Positions 21,913 to 63,513 are shown, numbered from the stretch's first letter. The stretch is DNA of 64,000 nucleotides from a virus (IMGVR_UViG_3300033555_000001:128001-192000); one strand, 5' to 3'. The notes: generated by a model from the letters alone, not told the origin. Made by a program: numbers and translations.

Positions 21913-22002
21913 GTTGCCCTCGCGCAACGCAAGCGCTGACACGCGCCGCTTTGCTGTTTCTGCTTAGCGCAGTATAAAAATAAACCTTGTTTTCAGTCAT
22001 GG

Positions 22003-31690: not shown

Positions 31691-31721
31691 GCGTACTTGA
31701 GCCAAGAGGTTACCAGTACGC

Positions 31722-34800: not shown

Positions 34801-35359
34801 GCGTGGAGTTCAGCGCGTACAAGTCCATTACTACGTCACCAACTTGAAACGTCTTTTGCGGCTGACCAAAGCGCGTAGTAAGCACACGGTTTGCTATCAG
34901 CAAAAACTGCTCTTTCCAGTTCGCGTTGTTTGGATCATTCCAGCCAACAACTAAACCAGCAATGTCAGTACCACGCGAATCAAACGCGCGTTCGGTTGTA
35001 CTGATGCTTGTGAACTTTACAAGTCCACGTACCGGAATATTTCGTGTTGCCTTATAGGAAATAAGTTTTGCCAGGCGCAGGATAGACTGTTTACGTTGCG
35101 CGGTAGTAATAAAATTCTCATGCGAGACCATGTCAACACGGTACGCAAGTTGCTCGGCCACGTATGCAAAAATCTCAAGCATAGCAATAAGTTCGCTGGA
35201 CTCAAGCAAATCGTTAAAGACTTCGCTGTAGTAAATGCGCAAGTAATCAACGAGCGACTGTTTGATCGTGTCAGCGTCGTACGATGTAAAGTTTACCTTG
35301 GTAAACCCCTCGTAAATTTTGTCCCAGCTTTCTGCACTATTACTATTTCTGAATGCCAT
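31817..35359 (-). CDS. gp6: baseplate wedge subunit (gp6-like, extended)
   Basis: YDADTIKQSL..YL...FND..ESS...E..AY...YR.D...ENF.TA.R..S..RLAK N-terminus; RMVNGQDY and G.ETIE motifs. Confidence 0.85.
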   Translation of the reverse strand: MAFRNSNSAESWDKIYEGFTKVNFTSYDADTIKQSLVDYLRIYYSEVFNDLLESSELIAMLEIFAYVAEQLAYRVDMVSHENFITTAQRKQSILRLAKLISYKATRNIPVRGLVKFTSISTTERAFDSRGTDIAGLVVGWNDPNNANWKEQFLLIANRVLTTRFGQPQKTFQVGDVVMDLYALNSTQNSFTNGVYPFSASTGLDSFPMEVVSADIDENGPLEREPDLASALSIIYANDGIGDGSDYTGFLAYVKQGTLTRIDYSILDKQPNRRLEFLPDNVNHTDVWVQKINGQGGIEQRWKQVETINEQNLIFNDDRSTRSKYEVDTLENDQIAIVFGDGDFAEAPQGLFRFWMRQSANRALVVQKSKVVNEPLTFTYISSTGNTETATVTFSLTTTLQNGAGSETIEHVRQSAPATYYAQNRMVNGQDYNTFPLKDPSILRLKAVNRTFAGQPKHIDWNDPSGTYENVKIFGDDLVMQYDLSLTSLTTSLSGQALIDSVIEPLLNTNGVINAMLHLSATDPATAGVVSPPRRSFIEDNRAGLHYSGNSFVKLIAGSTGDGSLKEKTAMQALIDRHWYGEPLAFVEGPNSQVFARIPDPDLFPKDDSRIYAAAVPRTVDGINKFPPGDIGSGLQPIAEQDYFALRYHRTLSGVGSGTITVHNRPSEVLSAEVFTIEVSADGVTLNVRSNLRGTFKTGAVGDPYELSADGTEFFTVSAGNIAFEPGDAFVLQNLDDLSVDLASVVRGGDAFNETRVINLNGWWEILGVSQLPYYASGINDGDEFLFAQDSAGSAQHSWLIFVKKLRQQPTNNVIGYEVHHRDLALTVQSRTTKFWFNEADQLLDSDTKKRVFDSIKILRSNKDYRGEVLASSQVYDVAGAVKDSNGVVDFHKLQVVPTDLLQEDSSGDLIPDRLLQFESFAGAVDGQSYEYFRLDNPGVTLADKTLAIQAFSLAGPDAFFAGNFGRRQTAKNSDGRGLDFMWQHFAPFTNIIDPSVTNIHDAYVITQGYYDSVISFLRGISLSAPTPPTPLDLRNSYSYLLKNKMLSDTVVLHSGKLRLLFGALAEPQFRAKFKVVRAPGSTLTNERVKEELLNVINTYFDIPNWDFGETFYVTELLSLMHTRLPTEIASAVLVPLYSTNSFGDMFTIECGFDEILQSAAQLADIEIVEALTPTVIRQMR

Positions 35360-43937: not shown

Positions 43938-43963
43938 CTAAATTGTAACGGTTTCGGTACCAG

Positions 43964-45471: not shown

Positions 45472-47136
45472 TTAAAGCTCTAATTTAAATTTTAAATTAC
45501 CACTGTCTTCACAGCGTAACCAACCATCAGCTCTCATATTCTCTAATTCTGTTTTACTGGCATCAAAATTCTTTACTATTCCAGGCAGCGCGGATTTCAT
45601 AGCTTGATATCGCAACAATCTAACTGGCCCTTTAACGTAAAAATAGTTAGGCCGTGTTGTCTTAATCAGTTTAAACCCTGCTCTGAGGTACGCATCACCC
45701 ACTGAAATTCTGCGATCTGCATAGGTGATTAAAGTCCGGTACGACTTTTTTCTGAGCTCTGCTAGAATTCGCTGAAATCCTCCGGTGACCGAAACTCCTG
45801 CACTGGCAAATCTAATTAGCTCTAATTCTTCTTTACCAAACCTAGCATGTCCAAAGCTAGCCGCTTGAACAAGTTTGTCATTATCAAACAGCCCAATAGT
45901 AAAACTTGCCTGCGCACTTCCTTGCAAGTGCCACTGCTTAAAAAATTCAGGACAGCCGCCCTTAAGCACTTTTACTTTTAGTTTTCTAGCCATTAGTCTA
46001 GGCAGCAATCCTAACTTAGCAAGTATAATGTTGTGCACCACAAGAGGCTTTTCATCTATTTCAAAATCCCAGAAGTGCAGTAACTGAATACCCGCAGCTT
46101 CAGCTAATTCAGTTTTCTTAATTAACGGTTGGGATACAGATTGGTCGTGATGCCAGTACACTCCATTTACTTCTATTGCTAATTGCTTAGCCGGAATATA
46201 AATGTCTAGTTCTAACGGTGAAATAACATTTCTGTCTTCTACCAAATACGAGAGATCTGTGTTAGATACCATTGCTTCAACGACTGTCTGAACTCCGCTC
46301 TTTCTTCTACAATACGGACAGAGAATACCTCTGTGTAGTCTGCCAGCTGCTTCAAATTGTTTGCCGCACTCTAGATGCTGCCACATGTATTTGGTTTCGT
46401 AACCGGACCAATCAGCTTTTGTGAACACTGGTATAACACTGCAGTCAGTTTTAATCTTCTGCATCTGCTCGTCAAAAGACCCGTCTAGAAAGCGCAATTT
46501 TGCTCGGTTGCTTAATTGTTTTTTCACTTCAGCAGTTTTAGTATAGTGAACCTCACCGTACTTAAGTAAAGTAGTTGATTCTGTTTTTATTCTAGTTTCT
46601 TGTTTTTCTGTTACCGATCGCCGTGCATGAGTAGCTGAAATTTGTTTCTTAATAACATCCGAATTGGCTGGATTTTCAGTACCGTATCTGAGCATATTTG
46701 TCGTAGCAGCTTTTTCTCGAACTTTAGGTGCGGACCATGATGCTTCATATCCGTACACTGCTAAACTTGTTTCTCTAATTTTAGCCCTGACAAGTTCAGA
46801 ACCCGCAGCATGTTCGGTTCCATACTTACTAAGATTGGTTTCTGATCGTTTTGATTTTGTGCTCTTTGAGACTGCGGCGCACTTAGGACTGCAGAATTTT
46901 TGAAGTTTGCCGTTAGCGTTTAAATTTAACGACTGACCACAGGAACAGTTTGGCCTGATTGAAATATCATTCTTCAATGCGTACATTTTTTCGGCAAGAG
47001 TAATCCACCCACCCAGATCCGCAGACATTAAATCAGCTTTAAAGATTTTTCCATTTGCGGAATTTAGCAGGCCAGTCATGAACTTACCGTCACGGTAAGC
47101 AAGATCCTGAAAGCGAGCTAGGAATAATTCAAACAT
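45472..47136 (-). mobile_element. Hef-like homing endonuclease (Zn ribbons + TNL.KYG repeats + Vsr/DUF559-type PD-(D/E)XK + C-terminal GNAT-like domain)
   Basis: CSCG..FCSPKC; ETNLSKYG/TNMLRYG repeats; ELDIYIP..AIEVNG.YWH; ITYADRR..G..Y...GF; visibly AT-rich; sits just downstream of the capsid gene. Confidence 0.75.
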
Positions 47137-47315: not shown

Positions 47316-48587
47316 TTACGAGAACGAAACGTTTGTGATCCTGATCCGTGCGTAGTAATCCGCGCTGTTACCAAGCGATGTACCAGCGTTGGTGAACGTA
47401 GCTTTTCCGTACCGGGTCATGAGGCTCACTGCTGGCATGAACGTGTTAGCGTCCATAACAACACCGGTGCTCATCAGTGGAACGTATGGGCAGTAAAAGT
47501 AACCTGTATCCAACTCTGACGAACCGCCTTTGTAGCCGATCAAGATGTCTTCGCCAGTTGTACCAGTAGCCGAACCAGCGCCGCCAGTCAATGTCCAAGC
47601 ATCATTCAGACCCCAGTTGTACGAGTAAACGCGCATCTGGCCATTCAACATACCAACAAGCTTGTTACCGGTAGGATCTTGGAACTGGCCAGAGACCGCT
47701 GGTGCAAACACGGACTTTGAAGCAGATTGCAAGATCGAAGTAACCAAGTGCGAACCAACCAACCAGTTACCAGGTCCACGACGCGTTTTAGCGCCGATTT
47801 CGTTTGCAAGCTTGTTAACCAAAATACCAAGTTCAGCGTAACGATCACCAATGAAGTTCGGCGAGAAACCAGCTGGTGGAGTTGCGAAGTCGAATGTTCC
47901 AACAGTTGCGGCCAGGGCCAACAGGTCTGTCAAGATTTCATTGTCGATTTCGTGAGCGATCTGAGCTGACAAGGCTGCTGTCAATTCATTTTCCAGATCA
48001 AGACCGTGCTGCGAAGTCATGTCCTGAGCTGCTTCCATTGTCCAACGAGCCTGCAACTTACGGGAACCTGCAGTGATTGTTTGCTTCAAGACGCTCAAAC
48101 GCAACGCACGACCGCCGTAGCCTTCGTAATCGCTTGTATTCGCGCCAACACCAGTACTTGTGTTAGCTGTCAGTGCTGGCGGATAACCTGCCGTACCAAC
48201 GTTTGCTGTCGAATAGAAACGCTTCATCTTCGAGTTGTTTGCAAAAACTTCATCACCAGCAGCGATGTCGTTTGAAGGATCGCCGTTTGTGTCGACGGAC
48301 TCAGCAAACGCAAAGCGCAAGCTGTATACCAAGCCAACTGGACCGCTCATTGGCTGTACGCCAACTAGATCGGTTGCAATAGTACCTGGCAAAATACGAC
48401 GAATCATCGGGATAACGATTTTTTGGAAGCCGTCAACAGCGTTAGCCGTTGTTGCAGTTGCGCTTGCGGTTTCCATCATGTACTGCTTCTGATTCTCCAG
48501 AAGAGTAGACACGATTTGTTTCTTCGAACCAGTAAGGCCTTCTAGCAAGGCGGCTTTAGTTTCGATCCAGTTTTCCGTTAGTAACAT
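47316..48587 (-). CDS. gp23: major capsid protein (gp23-like)
   Basis: LVGVQPMSGPVGLVY.LR, TITAGSRKL.A.WT.EAAQD, EIDNEI, GYFYCPYVPL and LMTRYG motifs. Confidence 0.95.
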   Translation of the reverse strand: MLLTENWIETKAALLEGLTGSKKQIVSTLLENQKQYMMETASATATTANAVDGFQKIVIPMIRRILPGTIATDLVGVQPMSGPVGLVYSLRFAFAESVDTNGDPSNDIAAGDEVFANNSKMKRFYSTANVGTAGYPPALTANTSTGVGANTSDYEGYGGRALRLSVLKQTITAGSRKLQARWTMEAAQDMTSQHGLDLENELTAALSAQIAHEIDNEILTDLLALAATVGTFDFATPPAGFSPNFIGDRYAELGILVNKLANEIGAKTRRGPGNWLVGSHLVTSILQSASKSVFAPAVSGQFQDPTGNKLVGMLNGQMRVYSYNWGLNDAWTLTGGAGSATGTTGEDILIGYKGGSSELDTGYFYCPYVPLMSTGVVMDANTFMPAVSLMTRYGKATFTNAGTSLGNSADYYARIRITNVSFS

Positions 48588-49887: not shown

Positions 49888-50430
49888 TTACCACTCACTC
49901 TCTTCGGACCTGTCGATCACCGGTTTGACGAGCCTGACTGCCTTTCTAATAGATGCTCCATCAGGGAAAACAAAGTAAAAGATCCCAAAGTTCTCATGAC
50001 GCTTGTACTCGATGCCAGCGTCTTTAAGTTCAGCCTCTGCTTTTTGAGCATTCAGCCGATCTTCGAAACCAAACTCTGGGCGCTCTGTACTGACGCCACC
50101 CATCTTCACGCCGAGGTGTTTACCTTCAGCAACTTTAGACCGTAGAAATTTTTCAAGGGATGCACCGCCTTCGGCGCGAGCCGCTGCGGTGATGGCTACT
50201 TTATCAGTATCCCACTGCTTTTGCGATTCATCGTCTGCAATCGACGCGGCAACTTTACCAGATTTATTGAACAGCACGTTTATACCGTAGTAGTCCTCTT
50301 GATCGGCTTTGGCCGAGTTATTCTTAACAAGCACCGCAAACGTGGCCCCAATTGCGCCCATGTCGCCCGTACCGCAGTATTTATTTTTCTTGATCGCCTC
50401 GGTAAGTGCGATTAATTCCCTCAATATCAT
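49888..50430 (-). CDS. hypothetical protein inserted in the head operon, putative internal head protein
   Basis: ATGA-coupled to the protease gene; N-terminus MILRELIALTEA. Confidence 0.6.
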   Translation of the reverse strand: MILRELIALTEAIKKNKYCGTGDMGAIGATFAVLVKNNSAKADQEDYYGINVLFNKSGKVAASIADDESQKQWDTDKVAITAAARAEGGASLEKFLRSKVAEGKHLGVKMGGVSTERPEFGFEDRLNAQKAEAELKDAGIEYKRHENFGIFYFVFPDGASIRKAVRLVKPVIDRSEESEW

Positions 50431-51041
50431 TTTCCACCTTTGCGGATGGCCTCTAACAGGGCGTTAATTTCTTTCTTAAAGTACTCTTGAGCCTTTGGAT
50501 CATGCACAACGGCTTCGGCTAAAGTGAGAACTTTCTTTGAACCAAGAGCTTCTGCAACGTAGTTTGGATAGGCGTCTGGCGCGCTTGGTGTGGAAACAAT
50601 GTCCATTGTCACAAATGCAAAGTCTGAAACATTACCACCTTCATTTACCGTACCTGTACCACGGGAGCTCACACCTAGTCTGACTCCACCCTCCATGATG
50701 GCCTTAGCAATATTACCGCATGGCGTATTCAACATCTTCATTTTGCCAACTGCGTTGTTGCCGTCCATACGGATTTCAGTAATGGCGTGCGATACATTTG
50801 CCAGGTTAATGCTTAGAACATCGGGATGGTTTAATTCTCCCAAAATAAAATTGCCCTGTTTAATTTTACTCTGGCATTCGTCAACTGCGCGAGTAATTTG
50901 ATCAACCCCATAAGTTCTTCCGTTACCGTTTTTCATCGCGGCCTGCATCATGATTCCGGACAAAAACATATCGCCACCCACGCGTTTCATTTCTGTCAAA
51001 TTAGTAACATTCGGTGCAAGATATTCTGTCAACAAGATCAT
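50427..51041 (-). CDS. gp21: prohead protease (gp21-like)
   Basis: KNGNGRTY, GELNHP, VSHAI, TPCG.I.K...G..LGVSSRG.G and D.VSTPSAPDA motifs. Confidence 0.95.
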   Translation of the reverse strand: MILLTEYLAPNVTNLTEMKRVGGDMFLSGIMMQAAMKNGNGRTYGVDQITRAVDECQSKIKQGNFILGELNHPDVLSINLANVSHAITEIRMDGNNAVGKMKMLNTPCGNIAKAIMEGGVRLGVSSRGTGTVNEGGNVSDFAFVTMDIVSTPSAPDAYPNYVAEALGSKKVLTLAEAVVHDPKAQEYFKKEINALLEAIRKGGK

Positions 51042-52856: not shown

Positions 52857-55775
52857 TTAGCCTCGTCTGAGGAGTTGATTAGTAAACTGTTCTGAATCAG
52901 CAAATCTAACTGCAGGACGCATGGCTAGCAGCATTGCGTCCGTGGCGTCTGCGTTTCGGGTTTCAACTGCTAGGTTATCACGCATGACTTGCAACATGCT
53001 TGTTAACACTATCATCATATCAGTATTTGTAGGTGTACCAACTGCAGGAACCTCTTTTGCTGCGACTGGTGGCGGTTCAATTGTATTTACCGTAGCCGGC
53101 ACAACAGCTTTTGGTATCTGAACCTGCGGCTGGCCCATGATTGCCTGTGCATCTCCGATTAGGGTTGATGCGCTGAGTGCACCGGCTTGGGCACTTGAAA
53201 ACTTTACTTGTGCCGCTGTTGCCTTAGTTGTAGCTTCAGTTGTTGCTTTTTCTGATTCAGCGGCGGCTTGTTGAGCGCTTTTACCCATTTTCTTAAGTGT
53301 TTTAGAACTATCGTCCCACAGCATACCCATAGCATTCATGTTTTCTGTTGAAGACTTTTCAAACGCCTCACCGCCGCCCTTTAAGTCTTTTACAAGCTGC
53401 GAGTCGTTGCTTAAAAACAAACCAAGCACGCTACCAAGGCCACTAAAGAGCCCGCCAAAAAAATGCTTAACCATTGCGTTTGCGCCCGCAACAAAAACGT
53501 CAAACTTGTTCTGCAACCAGCCGCCTGCGCCGGATCCAAAGACATAACCAAAAACGTCAATTAAAAAATTAGGAATTGCCGTTAAAAAGGCCGTAACAAC
53601 TCCGCCTACTCTGTTAAAAAAGCCACCGCTTGGATTTAATGCAATCGCCATTTCACCCGTAATTGCCTCTTTTATACCATCTATAATTCCAGCTATAGGC
53701 CCAAAAGCTTTGGCCGCGACCTTTAACCCGCCTATAATAGTGCCAATGCCGCCGGTTAGAGCGCCCGCGGTGCCGGCAAACACACTTCTGATTGCCGCTA
53801 GTGCGCCGTTAGAAGAGTTAATGGCCTGCACCCCGCTAATAGACGATTGCACCGCTCGAGGAATACCCGTAAGACTCGTGTAGAGGCCACTGGCGCCAGA
53901 TTTAATAGCCGCCAGTGGATTTAATAGCGTAGAAAGAACTGAACCGGTACCTTGTGCTACTTTAGCCAGCGCTCCAGTGGCTCCAGCGGCGCCACTGGCA
54001 CCCTGTGCGCCGGTTGCTAGTGCTCCAGCGGCTCCTTTGATACCTCCGCCGGTCAATAGAGATCCCATTAACTTGACTATTGGTCCACGGAATAGGGTAA
54101 GCAGTACGCCGCCAACCGCAGCTCCAATAGCAGGCACAATACTTTTTTGTATGCCCTCAGTCCATGCGGTTAACTTACCAACAGCTCGACCAAAAGAACC
54201 TACTGACTTACCAAAATCAGCGTTAGCCGTAGCGGGGCCGCTGTCAGCTGCAAGTGCCGCGGCATCGCTGGCCTTCCCAACTTGGCCAAGCTTTGTGGCA
54301 TCAATTTTTGCCCTCAAGTCTTCAATCGCGTGCTGCATGCCTAAATTACCGTTATTTGCCGCCTCTGCATACAGCGCATTTATTTTCTTAGAAAATTCGC
54401 CCTTGCGAGCGACCAATTCCTGGCTTTCTGCTCCAGTAATTGCAGTACCTTTAAGGCCAAGTTCGGTTATTCGCTGCGCATTTCCAGTATCGCCAGTAAG
54501 TGCGCCAAGGTTTAGGATAGCAGCGCGCTGGTCTAATCTTTCTGTAACTGTTGCTCCGCGTGCGGCAATAAGCGCATTACCAAGCGCTGTTGCTGCCTCG
54601 CCGGTTAAACCTAACCTGTTTCCAAGTGTTCTGATCTGTATCAATTCCTGCATTCGCGCCTGACGCTGAGCTGGTGCCAAGCCCAACATCTCACGCTGCA
54701 CCTGTTCATTCTTGCCAAGGCCGTCTACAACTTTTGCAAACTCATCAGTAGTAAGCAGAGTAGAAGCACGCAGATCTGAGAACGTTTTAATTTGTGCGTC
54801 TACAGCGCTACCAAGATCGCTGTTAAGAATACCAAATTCAGTACCGGTAGAGGCCAGTGCAGCCTGGAATGTTCGCGCTTCAGCTCCAAAGACGCCAATT
54901 GTTGCCAGCTGGCCATCGGCGGCCGAAATTAATTTATCGTATTCATTCAGACTGCCCTGACGCGCGGCGGTGCTGGAGTTCTCACGCACCATTTCGGTGT
55001 ACTCTTTTAACGACATGCCGGCCCTGGCCGCAAAGAACGACAGATCCGCCAAGTTACCGGCCGAGCCCAAGCCAAGGCGGGCGAGCGTCAAGTAATCAGC
55101 GGTTAATTTTGTTGTTATGTCAATAAGGCCTGAAAATACGGTAACAACTCCACCCGCAACAGCGCCAAGGCCTGTAAATCGTCCCAACATTTTGTCAACA
55201 GTGGTGCCAAACGCTGTAGTAGTACTGTCTAATCGCGTAGGCACTGGCCTGATCGCGCTATCTGCACCAGCCCGGCGGCGCATGCGCGCCTGTAAAATTC
55301 GGGCGGCTTCCTCGGTCGGCGCGTTAGAAGCGGCTCGCGGCGTTGCTGCTGCAGCTGCACCGTTTAAACCGAGTCCTTTTAATCTTGTGGCTGCTCCGCG
55401 CAACACGCCCATGAGCGAGTCAATTAAACCACTGCCGGTACCGCCGGATGTTGGTGTAGCCCCACCCTTTGCCGCGGTAAGTGTACCTTTAAATTTGGCC
55501 ATTTCAGAGGCAAGGGAGCCAAATCCGGTGGTTGTGCGGCCAACTGACGTGTTTAAGCTTACTAAGCTTTTATTCAGCCCGAGCAGTGCGTCATTTGTAT
55601 TCTTAGCTGTTAAGGCAATAGCTGTAAAAACTCGGGTGCCGGCGCGAATAGCTCCAGCGTTTTTTGCCTGCTCTGCTTTGTCTGCTGAAGATGGAAGCCG
55701 CCCGCCCGAGCCCGCCATTGCATTGCTGAGCAGTGTTTTGATATTTTCTAGCGTTTTAAGGATTTGTTCATCCAT
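52857..55775 (-). CDS. tape-measure-like protein
   Basis: 972 aa, Ala/Gly-rich and helical with hydrophobic segments; adjacent (divergent) to the gp26/gp51-like chaperone genes. Confidence 0.6.
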   Translation of the reverse strand: MDEQILKTLENIKTLLSNAMAGSGGRLPSSADKAEQAKNAGAIRAGTRVFTAIALTAKNTNDALLGLNKSLVSLNTSVGRTTTGFGSLASEMAKFKGTLTAAKGGATPTSGGTGSGLIDSLMGVLRGAATRLKGLGLNGAAAAATPRAASNAPTEEAARILQARMRRRAGADSAIRPVPTRLDSTTTAFGTTVDKMLGRFTGLGAVAGGVVTVFSGLIDITTKLTADYLTLARLGLGSAGNLADLSFFAARAGMSLKEYTEMVRENSSTAARQGSLNEYDKLISAADGQLATIGVFGAEARTFQAALASTGTEFGILNSDLGSAVDAQIKTFSDLRASTLLTTDEFAKVVDGLGKNEQVQREMLGLAPAQRQARMQELIQIRTLGNRLGLTGEAATALGNALIAARGATVTERLDQRAAILNLGALTGDTGNAQRITELGLKGTAITGAESQELVARKGEFSKKINALYAEAANNGNLGMQHAIEDLRAKIDATKLGQVGKASDAAALAADSGPATANADFGKSVGSFGRAVGKLTAWTEGIQKSIVPAIGAAVGGVLLTLFRGPIVKLMGSLLTGGGIKGAAGALATGAQGASGAAGATGALAKVAQGTGSVLSTLLNPLAAIKSGASGLYTSLTGIPRAVQSSISGVQAINSSNGALAAIRSVFAGTAGALTGGIGTIIGGLKVAAKAFGPIAGIIDGIKEAITGEMAIALNPSGGFFNRVGGVVTAFLTAIPNFLIDVFGYVFGSGAGGWLQNKFDVFVAGANAMVKHFFGGLFSGLGSVLGLFLSNDSQLVKDLKGGGEAFEKSSTENMNAMGMLWDDSSKTLKKMGKSAQQAAAESEKATTEATTKATAAQVKFSSAQAGALSASTLIGDAQAIMGQPQVQIPKAVVPATVNTIEPPPVAAKEVPAVGTPTNTDMMIVLTSMLQVMRDNLAVETRNADATDAMLLAMRPAVRFADSEQFTNQLLRRG

Positions 55776-55847: not shown

Positions 55848-56636
55848 ATGTCTGACACTCAAAACCCGCTGCTGGCCAAGATTAAATTGCCAGGCCGCAC
55901 ATTCCAGCTCCCATCCCGTGGTGCAATGTACAACAATGGTGAATTAGCAGCAGATTCGCCAACCGGCGAAATTCAAGTATATCCGCTAAGCGCTCTTGCT
56001 GAAATAAATTTAAAGAACCCTGATTTGCTGTTTAACGGCCAGGCATTGGTTGCTGTGCTGAATGAGTGCGTTCCAGCAATTAAAAAGCCGCTAGACATGT
56101 TTGGGCGAGATGTTGACGCGCTGCTGTTCTTCTTGCGACTAGCAACGTACGGCCAAGAGTATCGGATTGAAGTAAAGCACGATTGCGCAGAGGCTAAACA
56201 ACACGCCTATGCGGTTAATTTAGAAGAAGTAATCCAGCGCATGGTATTTCTTGACCCAACAGTTATTGCCAGTAAACAGACGGTGGTGCTGTCAAATGGC
56301 CAGACCGTTTATACTCGCCCAATGAAGTTCAGCGATATTATTGCGCTCTTTCATAAGAGCGGCAGCAAAAAAGAACTTACCCCAGATGACATCAAAGAAC
56401 TTGCTGTTACTAATCTTATGTCAATGATCGAGCGAGTTGAGGATATTACTAACGCAGCTATGATTGAAGAGTGGGTGCGCACGCTTACGACTCCAATGTT
56501 TAATCGAATTACTGAGGCTGCAAACGAGCTCAACAGTTGGGGTCCTGAGCAAGTGGTAGAAATCAAGTGCAAAGACTGCCACGGAACAATGCGCGTAGAG
56601 CTGCCGCTGAATCCTGTATCTTTTTTCACCGAATGA
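55848..56636 (+). CDS. gp26: baseplate hub/tail assembly protein (gp26-like)
   Basis: LPSRG..Y, E...LKNPDLL.NG, D.DALL..LR.A.YG, CxHxC and CKDC Zn-like pairs, ends PVSFF. Confidence 0.8.
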   Translation: MSDTQNPLLAKIKLPGRTFQLPSRGAMYNNGELAADSPTGEIQVYPLSALAEINLKNPDLLFNGQALVAVLNECVPAIKKPLDMFGRDVDALLFFLRLATYGQEYRIEVKHDCAEAKQHAYAVNLEEVIQRMVFLDPTVIASKQTVVLSNGQTVYTRPMKFSDIIALFHKSGSKKELTPDDIKELAVTNLMSMIERVEDITNAAMIEEWVRTLTTPMFNRITEAANELNSWGPEQVVEIKCKDCHGTMRVELPLNPVSFFTE

Positions 56637-56664
56637 TTTTGGATGGCGATCGCACCAAAATCAT
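56621..56664 (+). promoter_or_regulatory. candidate programmed -1 ribosomal frameshift signal
   Basis: In-frame slippery heptamer T TTT TTC (56621..56627), 5-nt spacer, perfect stem ATGATTTTGG (56633..56642) / CCAAAATCAT (56655..56664). Confidence 0.7.
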
Positions 56665-56863
56665 AAACATGATCGATAGAATGTCCCTGGATGTCAAGGC
56701 GCTTATTCAGTGCGCACTTGATATTGCAACACATACTAGAGGCGGCGTGCCGTACGAGACCGCACTTAACATGTCAGCTTTTGAGCGTGATCTGGCAATT
56801 GAGGGAATTAATAAGAGATTAGAGGCTGCGTCTAAGTCTCCATTTGGTGGCATGATGATGTAA
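56633..56863 (+). CDS. gp51: gp51-like assembly protein (76 aa), in the -1 frame of the gp26-like gene
   Basis: ATGA overlap; GG..YE.A.NMS.FER....I pattern resembles gp51; no clear Shine-Dalgarno. Confidence 0.65.
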   Translation: MILDGDRTKIINMIDRMSLDVKALIQCALDIATHTRGGVPYETALNMSAFERDLAIEGINKRLEAASKSPFGGMMM

Positions 56864-56864
56864 T

Positions 56865-56892
56865 AAAAGGGGATCTTATAAGATCCCCTTTT
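56865..56892. terminator. bidirectional intrinsic terminator
   Basis: Palindrome AAAAGGGGATCTT-AT-AAGATCCCCTTTT between convergent genes. Confidence 0.85.
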
Positions 56893-56924: not shown

Positions 56925-58175
56925 CTACGCCGTAAGACGAAGGTTTAATTTCTTCATGATTTCTGGCAGCCGATCCAAATACTGCTGAGGCACGCCATCT
57001 AGCCCATCATGCACCATAATTCCATGCTGATCAACAGCTTCCCAGAGCGCATATCTGGCGCGGCGTTCCCACGCAAAGTACCCACTGAATACCGATTTTA
57101 TATTTTGCCTGTTAGGCGCACGCTTGAGCAGTCCAAGACAGGCGTATTTTCTGGCAGCCGAGAACTGCGCAGCAATTCGCTGCAGGCGAGCACCAATTAA
57201 CATTAACTCAGACGTAGTAGCGTGTGGCGCAGCTTTGAGAATAATATCAGCGGTGAGTGAAAAGCCCGATCCGTTGGTTAGTAGTGTTGGGGAAATCTTT
57301 GAACCATTAGCCAGGCTCATGAGCACTTGCTTGATGGTACCGCGGTATTGATCAGTATACGGGTGCTGCAAAATCTGTAAACACAGCTCTTCCCTAAACG
57401 ATTCTTTATCTTCAAGCAGCCGCAACAAATCTGGAAACATCAGCCGCAGCGCGTTAGATCGATCGTGAAATGCTACTTCCAAGTGCTCCATTAAAAACTG
57501 CACATACGCAGAGTCAAGATCAATTCCCTGACCAAAGAGCATTTCTCTGAGCCAACCAGGCCAGGTTTCAACCGCGGCGATTGGCCACACTGAAGTATCT
57601 CGTAGCTGCAATTTACCACTGCGTGCAAAATAAAAGTTTATTTCTGGTGGCTGCCGTAATAACCAAATAAGCTGTGGGATAATTTCTGGCCGGCCGGTTG
57701 ATAACAGCCGGTTAATTATTACTGACTGATTGAGATTGGGCTGCAGATAGACTTTTGAAATAGCCGCATTTTCCGGCCTGACTCCTGGCTCGTAGTGCAG
57801 CTCAGTGGTTACGGCGTTAACCAGTTCTAAATCTGTGCGACTCAGTGTGCGAGGCACAAGAGTGCTCAGCTCCATGTTCTCTTCGCCAAGATTAAACCCA
57901 AGCTGCTTTATGGTGAAAAAGTAATCAAGGGCCGGTCGGTAATCGCGTACTTGATCCCTGAGATCCATTAGCCGCACTTGTACTTCACAGAAGCCCCGCG
58001 GCTTGCCGGATTTAATTGCTCCACGATACAAGTTCGCAAGCCATAAGATTAAGTCCTGGCGAGCCTCAATTTTTCCACGATGCAGTCGCTGCAGATCAGG
58101 CCAAAACTGCGTCCAGTGCAGGGGGTGATTGTGTGGCAAAGCGCCGGTGATGTTTAGCTTGTATGGACGTGTCAT
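56925..58175 (-). CDS. stand-alone family-A/T7-type polymerase-like protein
   Basis: Motif A-like GIDLDSAYVQFL, motif B-like RGTIKQVLMSLANG, motif C-like IMVHDGLDG, in the correct order. Confidence 0.55.
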   Translation of the reverse strand: MTRPYKLNITGALPHNHPLHWTQFWPDLQRLHRGKIEARQDLILWLANLYRGAIKSGKPRGFCEVQVRLMDLRDQVRDYRPALDYFFTIKQLGFNLGEENMELSTLVPRTLSRTDLELVNAVTTELHYEPGVRPENAAISKVYLQPNLNQSVIINRLLSTGRPEIIPQLIWLLRQPPEINFYFARSGKLQLRDTSVWPIAAVETWPGWLREMLFGQGIDLDSAYVQFLMEHLEVAFHDRSNALRLMFPDLLRLLEDKESFREELCLQILQHPYTDQYRGTIKQVLMSLANGSKISPTLLTNGSGFSLTADIILKAAPHATTSELMLIGARLQRIAAQFSAARKYACLGLLKRAPNRQNIKSVFSGYFAWERRARYALWEAVDQHGIMVHDGLDGVPQQYLDRLPEIMKKLNLRLTA

Positions 58176-58181
58176 GCTGTA

Positions 58182-58190
58182 ATTGTATCA
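58182..58190 (-). promoter_or_regulatory. extended -10 promoter (TGaTACAAT) 6 nt before the ATG
   Basis: Minus strand reads TGATACAAT-TACAGC-ATG; no Shine-Dalgarno. Confidence 0.5.
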
Positions 58191-58203: not shown

Positions 58204-58227
58204 AAAAAGGGCATACAGTGTATGCCC
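58204..58227 (-). terminator. intrinsic terminator
   Basis: Minus strand GGGCATAC-act-GTATGCCC-TTTTT. Confidence 0.75.
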
Positions 58228-58251
58228 CTCTGGTTATTCAAACTGCAGAAA

Positions 58252-58479
58252 TTAGGGGAAAGCGCCTAACCAATACCCAATGCCGTGAATAACTCCAATT
58301 GGAAACAGCAAGGCTCCGGCAATTAACAGGATCCAAAAACCTGCTTTAATTGAAACCACAATGTGCGTCAGCCATGCCGCAAAAATGATAACTGGAAGAG
58401 CAACAAATAGTAGCACCGTTGCCACCGCACCTTTCTTGCTAAAGAATGAGTTAAAGCTAGAGCTAATCCTGTTAAACAT
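58252..58479 (-). CDS. small membrane protein
   Basis: Start moved to MFNRISS; two hydrophobic helices ending PIGVIHGIGYWLG. Confidence 0.65.
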   Translation of the reverse strand: MFNRISSSFNSFFSKKGAVATVLLFVALPVIIFAAWLTHIVVSIKAGFWILLIAGALLFPIGVIHGIGYWLGAFP

Positions 58480-58681
58480 TAGCTGCCGGCGGTGCAGTAC
58501 CCTGCCGCACGCTCTTTTTAAGAGCCAAATATGCGCCACGAAAAGTATTACTGTTTACGGTGACCGTGCCACGCTTGTCCCGTGTGTACGCCACGGCTTT
58601 GACGTCGACGCCCTGTGCAATTGCAGCTTTTTCTAGATTACGGGTAACTTTGCGCAGGCTTTTTGCTGTTTTAGCGTTCAT
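58472..58681 (-). CDS. small basic hypothetical protein
   Basis: GAGGAG RBS; MNAKTAKSLRK N-terminus. Confidence 0.65.
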   Translation of the reverse strand: MNAKTAKSLRKVTRNLEKAAIAQGVDVKAVAYTRDKRGTVTVNSNTFRGAYLALKKSVRQGTAPPAANV

Positions 58682-58740: not shown

Positions 58741-59139
58741 TTAGGTTGATGCTTTTGCTGCCTTGGCTTTAACTCTGGCGCGCTTTGTTTTAAGCTTTCG
58801 ACGTTCTGCTTTTTCTTCAGGGGTGAAGTGCGTAGGGTGAATCAGTGCAGTTTGATTTGCGGCGTGCGTGCTAAGATAATTACCGGCCCCGTGCAAAAAG
58901 GCGATTAGCTGTGCGGGTTTCATGCCATATCGCGGCGCGCCATTTTCCACTTTTCCGAGCAAACTATTACAACTGCGGTGCAGCACGGCTCGAACGTGTC
59001 CGCCTTTATGGCAGTGATCTAGCACCGCCTCTTCTGGAGTGCAAACTAAGTTGCAAATAGCACAAAACCCGCCTTGCTGTTCGTGCATCAGCGTGCGGGT
59101 TTTCTTTACACCGGTAGTCTTAAGTTTTGTAGGAGTCAT
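58741..59139 (-). CDS. gp49: recombination endonuclease VII (gp49-like)
   Basis: Q.G.CAIC..LDHCH..GHVRAVLHRSCN.LLGKVEN. Confidence 0.9.
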   Translation of the reverse strand: MTPTKLKTTGVKKTRTLMHEQQGGFCAICNLVCTPEEAVLDHCHKGGHVRAVLHRSCNSLLGKVENGAPRYGMKPAQLIAFLHGAGNYLSTHAANQTALIHPTHFTPEEKAERRKLKTKRARVKAKAAKAST

Positions 59140-59142
59140 CCC

Positions 59143-59415
59143 CTATTTAACTGGGCTCTGCTCACCCCAAATTTCCATTTCTTCTGGTTCACCCGTAACG
59201 ATTAATGTTTTACCGCTTGCTTTTATAATACCATATTCACCATCGTCCCAAATTTCTTGAGGATCGGGAATGATTGTAACTTTACGTGTAATATAGCAAA
59301 ATCCATCTCGGGCTGTTGGAAATTTATTTGAAAAGTACCGCTCATTGTCTCGCTGAGTAATATAAATTTTAGCAGAGGCAGTGCGCGGTTTTTCTAAGAT
59401 TTCTGATAATTTCAC
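59143..59415 (-). CDS. hypothetical protein, putative internal head protein
   Basis: Coupled start; N-terminus MKLSEILE; its TAG stop forms part of a TAAATA core (59144..59149). Confidence 0.55.
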   Translation of the reverse strand: MKLSEILEKPRTASAKIYITQRDNERYFSNKFPTARDGFCYITRKVTIIPDPQEIWDDGEYGIIKASGKTLIVTGEPEEMEIWGEQSPVK

Positions 59416-59876
59416 GGCGACTTCTTCAATGAAGACTCAAAGGTAGAGGCTTCTTCAATTTCAAAGTTAAACGAATTATCAGTTACTCGCTTGACGACGT
59501 AATCACCATCATTTAGCTGCGCGGTCATACTGTTTTCAAGTTGAACTTCAATTGTATCTCCGGAGTACTTAAACGCTGAAATTTTAAGTGGATCCATGTA
59601 GACGGTAAAACCCTCGGCATCAGCCGTTTGATTAGGGCGAATTGGAGCCAGTGTTTTAGAGAGTTCAACCGCGCTAAACGTGCCAAACGGTTTTGATGTT
59701 GTACCAACCACGCTCAAGACCTCGTACGTTACTGGCTTTGTATCCAGTGGGCGAACCATGTAAGTAAGGGTTGATACGTACTTTGAAACTTCGGATTCGT
59801 TATTTGACCACAGGTCTTCTACGGCAACTTTTTCAATTGCCGCTTCAAAGATAGGTTTTAGATCTGATAATTTCAT
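59412..59876 (-). CDS. hypothetical protein, putative internal head protein
   Basis: GGAG RBS; TAAATA upstream; N-terminus MKLSDLKPIFEA. Confidence 0.6.
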   Translation of the reverse strand: MKLSDLKPIFEAAIEKVAVEDLWSNNESEVSKYVSTLTYMVRPLDTKPVTYEVLSVVGTTSKPFGTFSAVELSKTLAPIRPNQTADAEGFTVYMDPLKISAFKYSGDTIEVQLENSMTAQLNDGDYVVKRVTDNSFNFEIEEASTFESSLKKSP

Positions 59877-60280: not shown

Positions 60281-60313
60281 CCTGTAAGATCAGGTATTTA
60301 GCCCTCTATGATC
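60281..60313. repeat. 33-bp direct repeat, copy 2 (includes the gp46 stop codon and TAAATA)
   Basis: CCTGTAAGATCAGGTATTTAGCCCTCTATGATC. Confidence 0.9.
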
Positions 60314-62037
60314 GTACTAAACCCGTGATGCTTTTGTATTGTCATTGACCGATCTAATCGACCTTGGATATTTTGATGATGACTGATAACATAGATACCA
60401 AGATCCTCGTCACGGCTCTTTTCTTTTAGAATCCTGACAATTGCGTCAATTCCCGCGCTGTCAAGTGCGCCATCCAGCTCGTCAATCAGGAGCAGATTAC
60501 ATTTGGCGTGCAAGTGGTGCAACACGTCTCTGAACGCCAGGGCCATGCCGGTATTGACGCGCTTCTTTTCGCCGGCTGACAAGTTACCAAAGTCAAGGTC
60601 TCGCCCAAACTCAGACACAGTACAGCTCAGGTCAGCGTCAAATTTCACAATGTGCGGCAGCCCAAGCTTAGCCGTGTAGTTGTTGATTCGACTGTTCAAG
60701 AACGGAATGGTTCGGCTAATAATTCGCCGGCGCAGAAATGAATCTTTAGAGGTAAGCAGCTTTAGCAGAAACGCCTGATGTTCTAATCGTTTTTTCAGAG
60801 CATCAACTTTTTCAGGTTCTGCTGCTTGTGCAGTTTCAGCGCTTAACTGCTTAAACGCTTCAGTGTGCGGATTAACTGCGGTGGCTAAATCACCAAGCTT
60901 TACGGTCATGACTGATGAATTTTCACGGGCGGCCAAGAGCTCTTTCAAGTTACTGTGCTTGATAGCGCCTTCAACTTCAGCGAGCCGCTGTGCATGGGAC
61001 TGCACCTGTAGAGCCAGGTCGCCTACCACTTCCTCAACCTCCAGCAGTCTGGCGCCTTTAGCTTCAATGGCCGCATCCAGTTCTGTGAGCTTTTTTGGAG
61101 CATCAGCAAATTGCTGCAAACAGTACGGGCAATTTGCTTTAGCCAAGTGCGTCTGCTCGCTGAGTAGCCTTTCTACTTCAGCGGTGAGTAACTGCCGATC
61201 TTTTTTGGCTGGGGCCAGCTTAGAGTTTAGTTGTGCACCCTCTTGCGCCAGAGCAGTGCGCTCGTCATGCAGTAACTGCTCAAGCTCAAAGTCAACTGTG
61301 CCAAGCACCGCCAGGGTTTTTTCAATACTGGCTATTTCTTGCTGGCGCGTAACTTCCCAGCGATCTACTCTACTTGAGGCATCTGTAATCTGCTTTTGAT
61401 GCAGTTCTGCTGCTGTTAATTGCTGCTTGAGTACCGCCTCTTGTACTTTTAAATCGCTCTCTGTTTCGCGAATCAGCTCTTTGAGCACTTTTGCTTTTTC
61501 AGACAGGAGTGTAATGTTAAACAGTTCTTCAATTTGATTGCGCTGCGCTGCGGTTGGCAGCTGCAAAAACGCCACTGAGTTACCGGAGAAAATAATAGTC
61601 TTGGTAAAGAGATCATAAGAAATTCCAATGATCTCCTCGATCATTTTATCGCACTCAATTACGCTTTTACCTGGTGTAATGTCATCGCCGTTCTTCCACA
61701 GGTTAATTGTAAAGTGCTCACCACGTGTTCGTAAAATTTCATACTCATCACCGCCCCGCTCAAATGACAGGCGTACTTCCATGAGTGTGTTCTTTGATGC
61801 GTTTGTGCTGTTAATCAACCGCTGTAGACTGATATTGTCAAACGGCTTGTTGTACAGCGCGTAACACAGCGCGTTAATGATTGTAGTTTTGCCAGCGCCA
61901 TTTGAGCCGCCAACGTCTAGATTTTGGCCATCAATAGTTACAGTGCCAGGCTCGGCCAGATTTATTACGGTATCATTTTGGCCGAACGATAGAAAGTTTC
62001 TGAGCGTCAAGTCCCTGAAATACAGTGTACTGCTCAT
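60298..62037 (-). CDS. gp46: SbcC/Rad50-like recombination ATPase (gp46)
   Basis: Walker A GSNGAGKTT, zinc hook CPYC, signature LSAGE, Walker B LLLIDE. Confidence 0.95.
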   Translation of the reverse strand: MSSTLYFRDLTLRNFLSFGQNDTVINLAEPGTVTIDGQNLDVGGSNGAGKTTIINALCYALYNKPFDNISLQRLINSTNASKNTLMEVRLSFERGGDEYEILRTRGEHFTINLWKNGDDITPGKSVIECDKMIEEIIGISYDLFTKTIIFSGNSVAFLQLPTAAQRNQIEELFNITLLSEKAKVLKELIRETESDLKVQEAVLKQQLTAAELHQKQITDASSRVDRWEVTRQQEIASIEKTLAVLGTVDFELEQLLHDERTALAQEGAQLNSKLAPAKKDRQLLTAEVERLLSEQTHLAKANCPYCLQQFADAPKKLTELDAAIEAKGARLLEVEEVVGDLALQVQSHAQRLAEVEGAIKHSNLKELLAARENSSVMTVKLGDLATAVNPHTEAFKQLSAETAQAAEPEKVDALKKRLEHQAFLLKLLTSKDSFLRRRIISRTIPFLNSRINNYTAKLGLPHIVKFDADLSCTVSEFGRDLDFGNLSAGEKKRVNTGMALAFRDVLHHLHAKCNLLLIDELDGALDSAGIDAIVRILKEKSRDEDLGIYVISHHQNIQGRLDRSMTIQKHHGFSTIIEG

Positions 62038-62369
62038 TTTGAAAGCTTTACTGGCAAGTCGTTAATGCTGATGATCTTAATCGTAAAATCACCCTCTTCT
62101 TCTGCCTTCTTTGAAAAGCTAGAAAAAATACCAGACATGATACCAGACATACGTTCGGAGTCCTTGTGGCATATGTATACGGAGCCGCTGGCTTGAGGCA
62201 TGGTGTACTGCTCACCGTCAAACACAACGCTTTCAATTCCTGAGCTCAGTTTCCATGAATCACCATTAGCAAAGCCGCCATACCAGCTAGCAAGCACTTT
62301 ATTAATTGTGCCATGTTCGGCAGAATCTAACTCTACAATTACCCATGCATCCGGATGATAGTCGCTCAT
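62034..62369 (-). CDS. conserved phage hypothetical protein
   Basis: PDAWVIV...KVLASW.GG..GDSWKLSSGI motif; ATGA-coupled on both sides. Confidence 0.7.
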   Translation of the reverse strand: MSDYHPDAWVIVELDSAEHGTINKVLASWYGGFANGDSWKLSSGIESVVFDGEQYTMPQASGSVYICHKDSERMSGIMSGIFSSFSKKAEEEGDFTIKIISINDLPVKLSK

Positions 62370-63415
62370 TCTGTTCTTAATTCCTCATAAATTTGAACCA
62401 ACATCTCTGGATCAATTGTTGCTGTTGGCGACACACCCTCGTGAATTAACTGTCGCACGGTACCGTCCAGCGATGACAGGTCTAGTTCACCCTCCAGTTC
62501 TAACCCGGAGTTGAGAGCATCTTTCTTAGATTGTAAGTCCTCTTCGACAGAAAATTCTCTTAAATTAAAGGTTGACATCATTTCTTCTCGCAGGGCCTGC
62601 ACATCGCTGTAGCCAACATCTACGTCAAGTACACATCTGACTCGCCCGCCGGATTTAAAGCTCATTTCGCCTGTGAGTACCTGAGAAAGCTTAGTCTGAT
62701 AAAACAGTGGAGCGTCCTCATAATCAAAGAACTCTACACTCTCAGTTCCAGGAATAAAGAGACAGGCACCGCGTTCAGTATCCCAAGAGTCGCCAAAGGT
62801 GGTTGGAAAAGTGTTGCCAATATAAATGATGTTCTTGTTTACTTGGCGCAGGTGAAAGTGCCCGCTGAAAATATACTTAGGCCCAGTAAATTGATCTGCG
62901 TCCGGGCCGTGTTCTAGTCTGCGGTCGGTACCAGACACAACAAAATTTCGGAACTCAAAGTGCCCAAGCACGTACTTGTAAGAGTTAATCTGTTCGGCGA
63001 GCTGCGGGTATTCTTCTTTGAAGATAAAGGGTGTTGCAAATAAATCAGGCGCCAGTTCCATTGGCTCATTAACAATAACGAAGTTCTTCAGATCTCTGAA
63101 TTGGTCAGTGCTAAACACTTCGCGATTGGAGCGGTGATACAGGTCATGGTTGCCCACCAAGAAGAAAACTGGTAAGCCCAGGGCGTCTAATCTGCGGGCA
63201 CCCTCTTGAGATGCTTTTAATGTTCGCACATTAATTGCATTTCGGGATTCGAACCAATCACCCAGGAACGCGATATGTGTGGCTTTTTGTTCGATGGCTC
63301 GGGCACAAAACCAGTCTATGTAGTTTAGACAGTCTTGCAGATGTTGGTCGCTGTTCGACCGTGCGCCCCAATGAATGTCGGTGCACATCATCATTCTCAT
63401 ATTGGAGGTTATCAT
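62366..63415 (-). CDS. gp47: SbcD/Mre11-like nuclease (gp47)
   Basis: TDIHWG, LGDWF, GNHD, GHFE and SGHFH metallophosphoesterase motifs. Start moved to the ATG with an AAGGAG RBS. Confidence 0.95.
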   Translation of the reverse strand: MITSNMRMMMCTDIHWGARSNSDQHLQDCLNYIDWFCARAIEQKATHIAFLGDWFESRNAINVRTLKASQEGARRLDALGLPVFFLVGNHDLYHRSNREVFSTDQFRDLKNFVIVNEPMELAPDLFATPFIFKEEYPQLAEQINSYKYVLGHFEFRNFVVSGTDRRLEHGPDADQFTGPKYIFSGHFHLRQVNKNIIYIGNTFPTTFGDSWDTERGACLFIPGTESVEFFDYEDAPLFYQTKLSQVLTGEMSFKSGGRVRCVLDVDVGYSDVQALREEMMSTFNLREFSVEEDLQSKKDALNSGLELEGELDLSSLDGTVRQLIHEGVSPTATIDPEMLVQIYEELRTE

Positions 63416-63513
63416 GCCGCCGCTCCTTGGAGACAACCGCTAATAACTACTCTAAGTCCTGCAAAGTTTACTACCAAAAATTGCTGCGTTGGGTATAAAG
63501 TGTAAGCCGTCAT
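63412..63513 (-). CDS. 33-aa upstream ORF coupled to gp47
   Basis: AAGGA RBS; MTAYTLYPTQQFLVVNFAGLRVVISGCLQGAAA*; its TGA overlaps the gp47 ATG. Confidence 0.4.
   Translation of the reverse strand: MTAYTLYPTQQFLVVNFAGLRVVISGCLQGAAA

Follow-up and report, generated by a model that had tools for sequence, protein, structure and literature searches.

A predicted minimal PolA-like polymerase family linked to SbcCD-like and resolvase-type nuclease genes in uncultivated T4-like jumbo phages

Results

The polymerase-like gene and its homologues

In our study, a minus-strand gene of a T4-like jumbo phage was found to encode a predicted minimal polymerase of the Pol I/T7 RNA polymerase superfamily. 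The gene is located in a 64,000-nucleotide stretch (IMGVR_UViG_3300033555_000001:128001-192000), which is called the window here; positions are those of the window unless the genome is named. The window lies in an IMG/VR virus record of 310,728 bp that is about 87% complete. The open reading frame (ORF) at 56925-58175 encodes a protein of 416 amino acids (aa) (P0001), and the gene is a real one. The gene and the parts of its product were as follows.

56925-58175, minus strand: PolA-superfamily polymerase-like gene, supported by the ORF, 261 homologues, an AlphaFold2 model and fold matches
57786-58175, minus strand: N-terminal alpha/beta domain, residues ~1-130, with conserved P18-L19, Q40, F86-F87 and G93
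57582-57743, minus strand: residues ~145-198, with helices 150-159 and 163-173 (thumb stub) and beta-hairpin 178-186/192-197 (DSSP of the model)
57471-57557, minus strand: motif A region, residues 207-235, a helix with R210 and F214, a short strand with D219 and a helix with Y224 and Q226
57291-57353, minus strand: motif B/O-helix, residues 275-295, K282-x3-M286-S-L-A-N290-G291-S292
56988-57023, minus strand: motif C, residues 385-396, a beta-hairpin with H389-D390 at the turn, followed by G391, D393, G394 and P396

A previous reading of the window, made from the sequence alone (the sequence-only reading), had proposed a stand-alone PolA/T7 RNA polymerase-like enzyme with three motifs in a 416-aa ORF. 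All three motifs, D219-L-D-S-A, R278-x3-K282-x7-N290-G291 and V-H389-D390-G, were present in that order. The protein is no isolated orphan; it belongs to a conserved family with fixed partners, namely SbcCD-like genes, a PDDEXK or endonuclease VII nuclease and a small basic protein.

A word-indexed search recovered 261 homologues, nearly all of 405-425 aa and all unnamed, on contigs of up to 375 kb. An exhaustive phmmer search of 1.84 billion cluster representatives returned 41 representatives, every one from the same family, and a profile search with the family reached nothing beyond it and no annotated polymerase. The family is therefore isolated in sequence space. No model of Pfam, PHROGs, NCBIfam or PADLOC matched the 416-aa protein; in Pfam there was no match at E<=1 for this protein and none at E<=0.1 for eight divergent members. 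PF00476 (DNA_pol_A) and PF00940 (RNA_pol) matched neither the protein nor anything in the genome scans. Sequence and profile searches of the PDB found nothing, and neither shape-based nor feature-based searches of the ESM Atlas were informative. A tblastn search with the target and two divergent members gave no match in 50,697 phage records and no cultured carrier was found, and the family is thus known only from uncultivated phages, where its members occur only in T4-like jumbo phages. When the family alignment was compared by hhalign with T7 RNA polymerase (RNAP) alone or with N4 gp16 alone, the result was not significant, and against a 12-member profile of T7-like RNAPs it was marginal (P 0.009-0.018), with the motif B strings aligned exactly.

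Predicted fold and domain layout

The AlphaFold2 model, built from a 58-sequence alignment, had a predicted local distance difference test (pLDDT) score of 91.4 and a predicted template-modeling (pTM) score of 0.83. Foldseek gave weak matches in the PDB, the sole long alignment being with Pol nu (E 0.76). In a structural comparison with 48,161 PDB representatives, the best 13 were all family A DNA polymerases (DNAPs) or T7-like RNAPs, so that the PolA/T7 RNAP-like assignment of the sequence-only reading holds at the level of the fold. The top match was Pol theta (10.5; 242 residues aligned, root-mean-square deviation 4.1), followed by a Taq variant (10.0), Klenow (9.8), Pol nu (8.8), yeast mitochondrial RNAP (8.5), T7 RNAP (8.1) and T7 DNAP (8.1). 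These matches all span model residues ~130-416, and the DNA polymerases ranked above the RNA polymerases by ~2 Z units. Fold searches of BFVD and AFDB clusters concurred. Their best matches were uncharacterized stand-alone proteins of 487-547 aa (E 1e-8 to 1e-4, template-modeling score 0.50-0.55), and the lower ones were 'family A palm' proteins, phage PolAs, the Zamilon virophage replication protein and N-terminal modules fused to SF3/P4-type helicases.

In the model, residues ~130-416 form a palm like that of the RNA recognition motif and helical fingers, with a very short thumb. The N-terminal domain is separate from and unrelated to this PolA core, and matched no known fold in the fold search and no promoter-binding domain of RNAPs. 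The sequence-only reading had considered the protein too short for a PolA; this does not hold, as residues ~130-416 have about the length of a polymerase domain devoid of exonuclease and the first ~130 are an unrelated extra domain. Its statement that an exonuclease domain is missing was borne out, and neither a 3'-5' exonuclease domain nor a vestige of one was found in the 416-aa protein.

The order of secondary structures was the same as in PolA, that is, helices 150-173, the beta-hairpin with R192, helix 207-214, the strand with D219, the fingers and the hairpin with the HD motif. G187, R192 and P198, on or near the beta-hairpin, were conserved in all of the 157 full-length family members on which the conservation counts are based. 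DSSP assigned the fingers (residues 223-380) as all-helical, with K282...N290 on helix 275-289, and showed no specificity-loop hairpin and no intercalating hairpin in the model. The minimal core of the superfamily described by Iyer et al. (2008; PMC2579912) includes an Arg-bearing hairpin, and the core order of the 416-aa protein agrees with it.

Active-site motifs

The residues D219, K282, N290, G291, H389 and D390 were invariant (157/157), and so were R210, R261, R374 and G394. Y224 was Tyr in 150 and Phe in 4 of the members, M286 was present in 154/157 and Q226 in 152/157. D221 was acidic but varied (D in 107, E in 46), whereas R278 was not conserved (I in 81, R in 39, K in 13). In a second set of 36 sequences, with identity down to 22%, D219, K282, G291, H389 and D390 were still invariant. 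Conservation of the aspartates in homologues was the test named with the sequence-only reading, and D219 and D390 pass it; the predicted catalytic pair is, however, D219 of motif A with D390 of motif C, and not both Asp of D-L-D.

D219 (codon 57519-57521) is present in strand 218-220 of the model. Palm matches of Y-family polymerases began at model residue 213-215, paired to chain residue 1-4, and the sequence of E. coli Pol IV, laid ungapped on the palm start, placed D8 on D219, D10 on D221 and F13 on Y224. Because D219 is invariant and agrees with both the Y-family palm start and the Pol IV overlay, it was assigned to motif A. The hhalign register with T7 RNAP, which sets the T7 motif A strand on residues 192-198 with Pro198 at the position of the Asp, was rejected. 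This register leaves the invariant D219 unexplained, while the Y-family palm and Pol IV put the first-strand Asp on D219; it also sets model strand 178-186 against a helical segment of T7 RNAP, and a non-significant profile alignment with divPolA2 (see below) likewise sets motif A at 216-221.

In motif B, the T7 RNAP string K631-RSV-M-T-L-A-Y639-G-S-K corresponded to K-QVL-M-S-L-A-N-G-S-K in the family. Compared with the consensus RxxxK...(F/Y or M)...YG, K282 and G291 were invariant, the Arg varied and the Tyr was replaced by Asn in 157/157. In motif C, with strands 386-388 and 391-393 in the model, HDSFGTIP of T7 RNAP and HDCFRCLP of N4 gp16 corresponded to HDGLDGVP, with a common H-D-x5-P spacing.

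By the motif alignment, the equivalent of T7 Tyr639 is N290 and that of Gly542/Glu710 is Y224, which is Tyr or Phe in the family. T7 Tyr639 reads the 2'-OH. The position five residues after the motif A Asp corresponds to Gly542 of T7 RNAP; in Klenow it is Glu710 and in Pol IV Phe13, both of which act as steric gates. The use of deoxynucleoside triphosphates (dNTPs) is favored because an aromatic residue, Y224, stands five residues past D219 at this sugar-gate position, and because the equivalent of Tyr639 is an Asn, a specificity loop and a promoter domain are missing, and DNA polymerases rank higher in structure. The polymerase therefore most likely uses dNTPs and makes DNA.

Conserved gene neighborhood

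The genome was found to contain T4-type portal, prohead protease, major capsid and baseplate-hub genes, and encodes its own family B DNA polymerase (PolB). A gp55-like late sigma factor gene was also present, as the sequence-only reading had said. A Toprim (gp61-like) protein, whose match lies below the Pfam cut-off (19.3 vs 22.1 bits), is encoded directly upstream of a DnaB-like (gp41-like) helicase. Because PolB, the Toprim protein and the helicase are present, the roles of replicase and primase are already taken, and a replicative primase role for the 416-aa protein is unlikely.

The neighborhood was compared in 68 loci, 67 from viral contigs and the window's own. The following neighboring features were found in the window.

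58472-58681, minus strand: small basic protein c10, 69 aa, MNxKxAKxLR ... GxYxxxKK (hidden Markov model E 5.5e-10)
58741-59139, minus strand: endonuclease VII (T4 gp49-like), which fills the PDDEXK_15 slot (PF02945 E 2.4e-14; phrog_423 E 5e-36)
60298-62037, minus strand: gp46-like SbcC (phrog_77 E 1.6e-96)
62366-63436, minus strand: gp47-like SbcD (phrog_100 E 1.8e-55)
60298-63436, minus strand: upstream end of the conserved module, consisting of SbcC, a small ORF and SbcD

In all 68 loci, the polymerase gene was present between the gp47/gp46 block and the baseplate-hub/tail/portal block. The 57 loci with >=3 kb upstream contained a PDDEXK_15 nuclease in 44 and an endonuclease VII in 10, never both, so that either was present in 54. 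A gp46-like gene was found within 9 kb upstream in 43/44 loci with enough sequence. The most divergent members (22-27% identity) retained the order SbcD-SbcC-PDDEXK_15-polymerase, and in three of the most divergent loci the stop of the PDDEXK_15 gene overlapped the start of the polymerase gene. No D5/SF3 helicase, resolvase, integrase or transposase was linked to the gene in the 68 neighborhoods; PADLOC gave no match, and no defense or anti-defense genes were found in the conserved neighborhood.

The most constant companion gene was c10, which encodes a very basic protein and was present upstream on the same strand in 61/68 loci. Its relatives are ~57-87 aa long with a variable middle. The predicted complex of the polymerase with c10 scored 0.36, against 0.02 for the best control, with one of three runs at 0.00; in the calibration, the mark was reached by 58/80 solved complexes and 2/110 mismatched pairs, and at 0.60 or under it was reached by only 7/80 solved complexes and both passing mismatches. 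The prediction thus lends weak support to a polymerase-c10 complex.

In 19/68 loci (for example L066:9513-9986 and L056:9474-9965), a nucleoside 2-deoxyribosyltransferase-like gene (PF15891, E 2e-36) immediately precedes the polymerase gene, its stop overlapping the polymerase start by 4 nt. It hints at a link to nucleotide-pool or base-modification metabolism in one subclade. As a core partner it was rejected, since it is absent from the genome of the window. In another related locus, L004, a 2914-aa ORF directly follows the polymerase gene.

Transcription signals

The sequence-only reading had placed the gene in its own transcription unit, and terminator-like hairpins do bracket it. The signals around the gene were as follows.

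58205-58231, minus strand: terminator-like hairpin with U-run between the upstream small genes and the polymerase gene (-16 kcal/mol, z -3.5)
58182-58190, minus strand: extended -10-like TGaTACAAT, ending 6 nt before the ATG
56865-56892, both strands: bidirectional terminator-like hairpin, common to the convergent baseplate-hub operon (-17.9/-18.1 kcal/mol)

Both hairpins precede U-runs, and no shuffled sequence folded as stably as either. No Shine-Dalgarno sequence was found between the upstream hairpin and the ATG of the polymerase gene. The TGaTACAAT sequence is a possible promoter of the gene's own, which would give a leaderless mRNA. TGnTAnAAT, ending 4-6 nt before the start codon and not accompanied by a Shine-Dalgarno sequence, was present at five genes of the genome, including the polymerase gene; the other sites were upstream of 45472-47136 (minus strand) and at genome positions 28920, 231844 and 250430. 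These five genes may have leaderless mRNAs. The locus was carried by one public sequencing run only, a DNA run of an ice metagenome which is probably the sample that the genome came from, and no RNA evidence for the locus was found.

Two further motifs were found in upstream regions. CTAAATA(G/C), with 30 sites, was ~31-fold enriched in the upstream regions of the whole genome; within the window it was present upstream of 15417-17063, 30971-31705, 50427-51041, 52857-55775 and 59412-59876, all on the minus strand. The T4 late promoter TATAAATA had 0 matches in the window, and CTAAATA is probably the gp55-type late promoter of the phage. This motif was not found directly upstream of the polymerase gene. 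The contiguous motif (A)ACCGTTACA(C/A)T(T/C)T had 22 sites in the genome, 18 of them intergenic, most often 40-130 nt ahead of a small gene and at times in tandem, with no conserved -35 element. Sites in genome C1 include 19393, 52180, 95306, 98353, 220296, 250382 and 263875, and one site in the window is near 43950 (genome 171950, minus strand). This motif makes up a second promoter-like class.

Other genes of the window

The gene after the baseplate-hub gene (56567-56863, plus strand; hub gene 55848-56636, plus strand) starts at the ATG at 56633, which overlaps the TGA of the hub gene (ATGA). The product from Met 56633 aligned end to end (E 1e-16) with a separate 74-aa gene, which was present after the hub gene, with a like stop/start overlap, in 61/68 related loci. 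Ordinary translational coupling would explain this layout, and a programmed -1 frameshift fusion is not required. A 554-aa HNH/homing-endonuclease-like gene (45472-47136, minus strand; phrog_3339 E 1e-98) adjoins the major capsid gene (47316-48587). Three giant minus-strand ORFs were present in a row at 17797-21942 (1381 aa), 22003-30978 (2991 aa) and 31817-35359 (1180 aa).

Discussion

Comparison with known polymerases

The family A DNA polymerases (Pol theta, Klenow/Taq, Pol nu and T7 DNAP) differ from the present family in several respects. The 416-aa protein has no DNA_pol_A match and no exonuclease, its thumb is cut to two 10-residue helices, the O-helix has Met and Asn in place of Phe and Tyr, motif C reads HDG instead of HDE, and the candidate steric gate is Tyr instead of Glu. 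From the T7-like RNAPs, including the heterodimeric N4 RNAP II (gp15+gp16), the protein differs by the missing PF00940 match, by the Asn at the Tyr639 and the Tyr at the Gly542 position, and by the lack of a specificity loop, an intercalating hairpin and a promoter-binding N-terminal domain.

The closest likeness by description is to divPolA2, a diverged PolA of barbaviruses, Vibrio phage ICP1 and relatives, with variable neighborhoods, for which the authors suggested a 'repair DNAP or RNAP' (Yutin et al., 2024, Virol J 21:200; PMC11348598). As published, divPolA2 proteins are ~420-435 aa long and contain an unknown N-terminal globular domain and a PolA core of palm and fingers whose catalytic motifs are intact; they have no recognizable thumb and no exonuclease, are encoded in addition to a regular PolB, and match both DNA polymerases and T7-like/mitochondrial RNA polymerases in structure, all as in the present family. 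Membership in divPolA2 was rejected, as there was no significant sequence similarity (BLASTP E 0.59; hhalign P 0.09 against one sequence and 0.69 against a 5-member divPolA2 alignment). Five divPolA2 members contained the classical PolA motifs GGR, IQNLP, D-[YF]-x-x-F-E and RxxxK, whereas the present family contained G-x4-R, ETWP, D-x-[DE]-x-A-Y and K-x3-M-S-L-A-N-G. The variable neighborhoods of divPolA2 contrast with the fixed SbcCD/nuclease context found here, and divPolA2 was present in 266 cultured-phage records, the present family in none. In ICP1 (MW794167), divPolA2 is an unannotated 434-aa gene (L164:3001-4305), 42% identical to the representative of that paper.

The TV-Pol family was found through PSI-BLAST/HHpred links to PolA (Iyer, Abhiman and Aravind, 2008; PMC2579912), and the CcPol-MP primase is a characterized member (Bebel et al., 2020, PMC7581432; Rice, 2023, PMC10061031). 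TV-Pols, which were compared by description, share with the present family a nuclease-free superfamily-A core of thumb stub, Arg-bearing beta-hairpin, two catalytic Asp and fingers Lys, and are also encoded by mobile elements or viruses beside other replication enzymes. In the 416-aa protein these elements are the R192 hairpin, both Asp, K282 and a thumb of only two 10-residue helices. The present family differs from TV-Pols in that the phmmer and profile searches gave it no sequence link to PolA or to other TV-Pols, its RxxxK Arg is not conserved and its N-terminal domain is different. The D5/SF3 helicase, resolvase, integrase and transposase context of TV-Pols is also replaced by one of SbcCD-like, PDDEXK_15/endonuclease VII and T4-type baseplate and portal genes. 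CcPol keeps the equivalents of Glu710 and Phe762, where the present family has Tyr224 and Met286; for a CcPol-type partner, the family has the conserved c10 with the complex score given above, and no adjacent helicase. No later literature on minimal accessory PolA-like enzymes was found in our search.

Proposed role and alternative explanations

We consider it somewhat more probable than its negation that the protein is a catalytically active, exonuclease-free minimal family A (Pol I/T7 RNAP superfamily) polymerase for DNA synthesis in recombination-linked repair or replication. A role in recombination and repair is inferred because even members with 22% identity retain the place of the gene behind SbcD/SbcC-like genes and a structure-specific nuclease, and the polymerase is not considered the replicase because the phage has PolB, the gp61-like primase and the gp41-like helicase. 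D219 of the first palm strand and D390 of the motif C hairpin would bind two metals, K282 on the O-helix would bind the phosphates of the incoming nucleotide, and R192 on the beta-hairpin would contact template or primer; a hairpin of this type contacts the template in PolA (Iyer et al., PMC2579912). The enzyme would carry out short-patch or 3'-end-extension synthesis of DNA on resected or branched recombination intermediates, which would serve double-strand-break repair or recombination-dependent replication. The N-terminal domain may supply binding of nucleic acid or a partner in place of a full thumb, and c10 may act jointly with the polymerase.

Several points weigh against this proposal. 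No sequence method ties the family to PolA, and the assignment comes from predicted structure and motif logic; the juxtaposition of D219 and D390 and the sugar-gate role of Y224 are likewise inferred. The Tyr to Asn change on the O-helix and the non-conserved Arg of RxxxK suggest that nucleotide binding may be unusual. Motifs B and C are nearer to T7 RNAP than to DNA polymerases, with Met at the Phe762-equivalent position and a non-acidic residue after HD. The conserved neighborhood could in part be lineage-wide synteny and not function.

In an extended form of the proposal, which we think unlikely, the polymerase and c10 would be the two-subunit synthesis arm of a break-processing module that consists of SbcCD-like resection, junction nuclease and polymerase. 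As a part of the same unlikely account, the two subunits would prime de novo, or would extend and join resected 3' ends (Pol theta-like end joining or the start of a D-loop). If true, this would give T4-like jumbo phages a dedicated initiator, independent of the PolB holoenzyme, for break repair or recombination-dependent replication, with an active site of RNAP-like motifs B and C and a Y-family-like D-x-D-x-x-Y motif A.

Three other explanations were weighed, each of them improbable in our judgment, and they are given here in falling order of probability. A minimal single-subunit RNAP, functionally like N4 RNAP II, would transcribe part of the phage gene set, or would synthesize RNA primers or R-loops on intermediates of recombination or replication, and the AACCGTTACA(C/A)T motif would be a candidate element of its single-stranded DNA (ssDNA) or double-stranded DNA templates. 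This 13-nt motif is, however, missing from the upstream region of the polymerase gene itself, and the phage has gp55 with abundant late-type promoters for the host RNAP. The protein also speaks against transcription through the Asn at the Tyr639 position in every member, the bulky Tyr/Phe at the Gly542/Glu710 position, where a clash with the 2'-OH is expected, the all-helical fingers that lack a specificity-loop hairpin, an N-terminal domain unlike those that bind promoters, the absence of a PF00940 match and the higher structural rank of DNA polymerases. Slightly less probable is a primase-polymerase of the TV-Pol/CcPol-MP type, which together with c10 would start DNA de novo on ssDNA exposed by the SbcCD-like nuclease. 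TV-Pols and CcPol are the minimal PolA cores known so far, and priming by CcPol depends on a small partner that binds ssDNA, a part for which c10, with its upstream position in 61/68 loci and its weakly supportive complex score, would be available. The core elements of Iyer et al. are present, the very short thumb is reminiscent of CcPol, whose last thumb helix is shortened, and the BFVD/AFDB matches include virophage and SF3/P4-helicase-fused proteins of the TV-Pol type. Yet one of the three complex runs gave 0.00, c10 is too small for a typical oligonucleotide/oligosaccharide-binding fold and its middle part varies too much, and the linked helicase, resolvase and integrase that define TV-Pol elements are missing. 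The phage already has a gp61-like Toprim protein beside the gp41-like helicase, and Tyr and Met stand where CcPol keeps its Glu710 and Phe762 equivalents.

The least probable account is that the protein does not copy a template at all, being either a template-independent nucleotidyltransferase (for signal or decoy oligonucleotides, or tailing) or a protein that descends from a polymerase and binds DNA but has lost catalysis. Terminal-transferase-like activity is a property of Pol theta, which headed the structural matches. The minimal duplex-gripping thumb, the O-helix Asn, the lost Arg of RxxxK and the Gly after HD, where DNA polymerases have Glu, fit with this account, the last three being unusual changes at positions that hardly vary elsewhere. 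A loss of catalysis is opposed by the fact that both Asp, the Lys, the His and four Arg do not vary among the 157 members, and the template-contacting hairpin of PolA (Iyer et al., PMC2579912) is kept with R192. The missing PADLOC match and the lack of defense or anti-defense genes nearby also count against it; for the synthesis of anti-defense oligonucleotides, which the sequence-only reading had offered as an example, no evidence was found, and the context points to recombination and repair.

Significance

Small exonuclease-free family A polymerases beside the replicase of a phage have only recently been recognized, namely TV-Pol, CcPol-MP and divPolA1/2. To our knowledge, among these only CcPol has been assayed. 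ICP1, which is well studied and genetically tractable, could serve as a model for accessory polymerases of the divPolA2 class. Judged by its predicted structure, the present family is a sequence-isolated variant of these accessory minimal PolA-like phage polymerases, and standard annotation is blind to it, as it has no Pfam, PHROG or NCBIfam match. The conserved link of such an accessory polymerase to SbcCD-like and resolvase-type nucleases is newly seen here. The family is the first such polymerase with a fixed functional neighborhood and gives a concrete hypothesis for the 'second polymerases' of phages. Its active site mixes features of RNAPs, DNAPs and Y-family polymerases that are normally kept apart: the O-helix carries Met and Asn, and the sugar-gate position is aromatic. 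The family is therefore of interest for studies of how polymerases select sugar and template, and as a small polymerase scaffold. Even if the enzyme is an ordinary gap-filling DNA polymerase, the finding would give a useful annotation to over 260 proteins which are now hypothetical in uncultivated jumbo phages.

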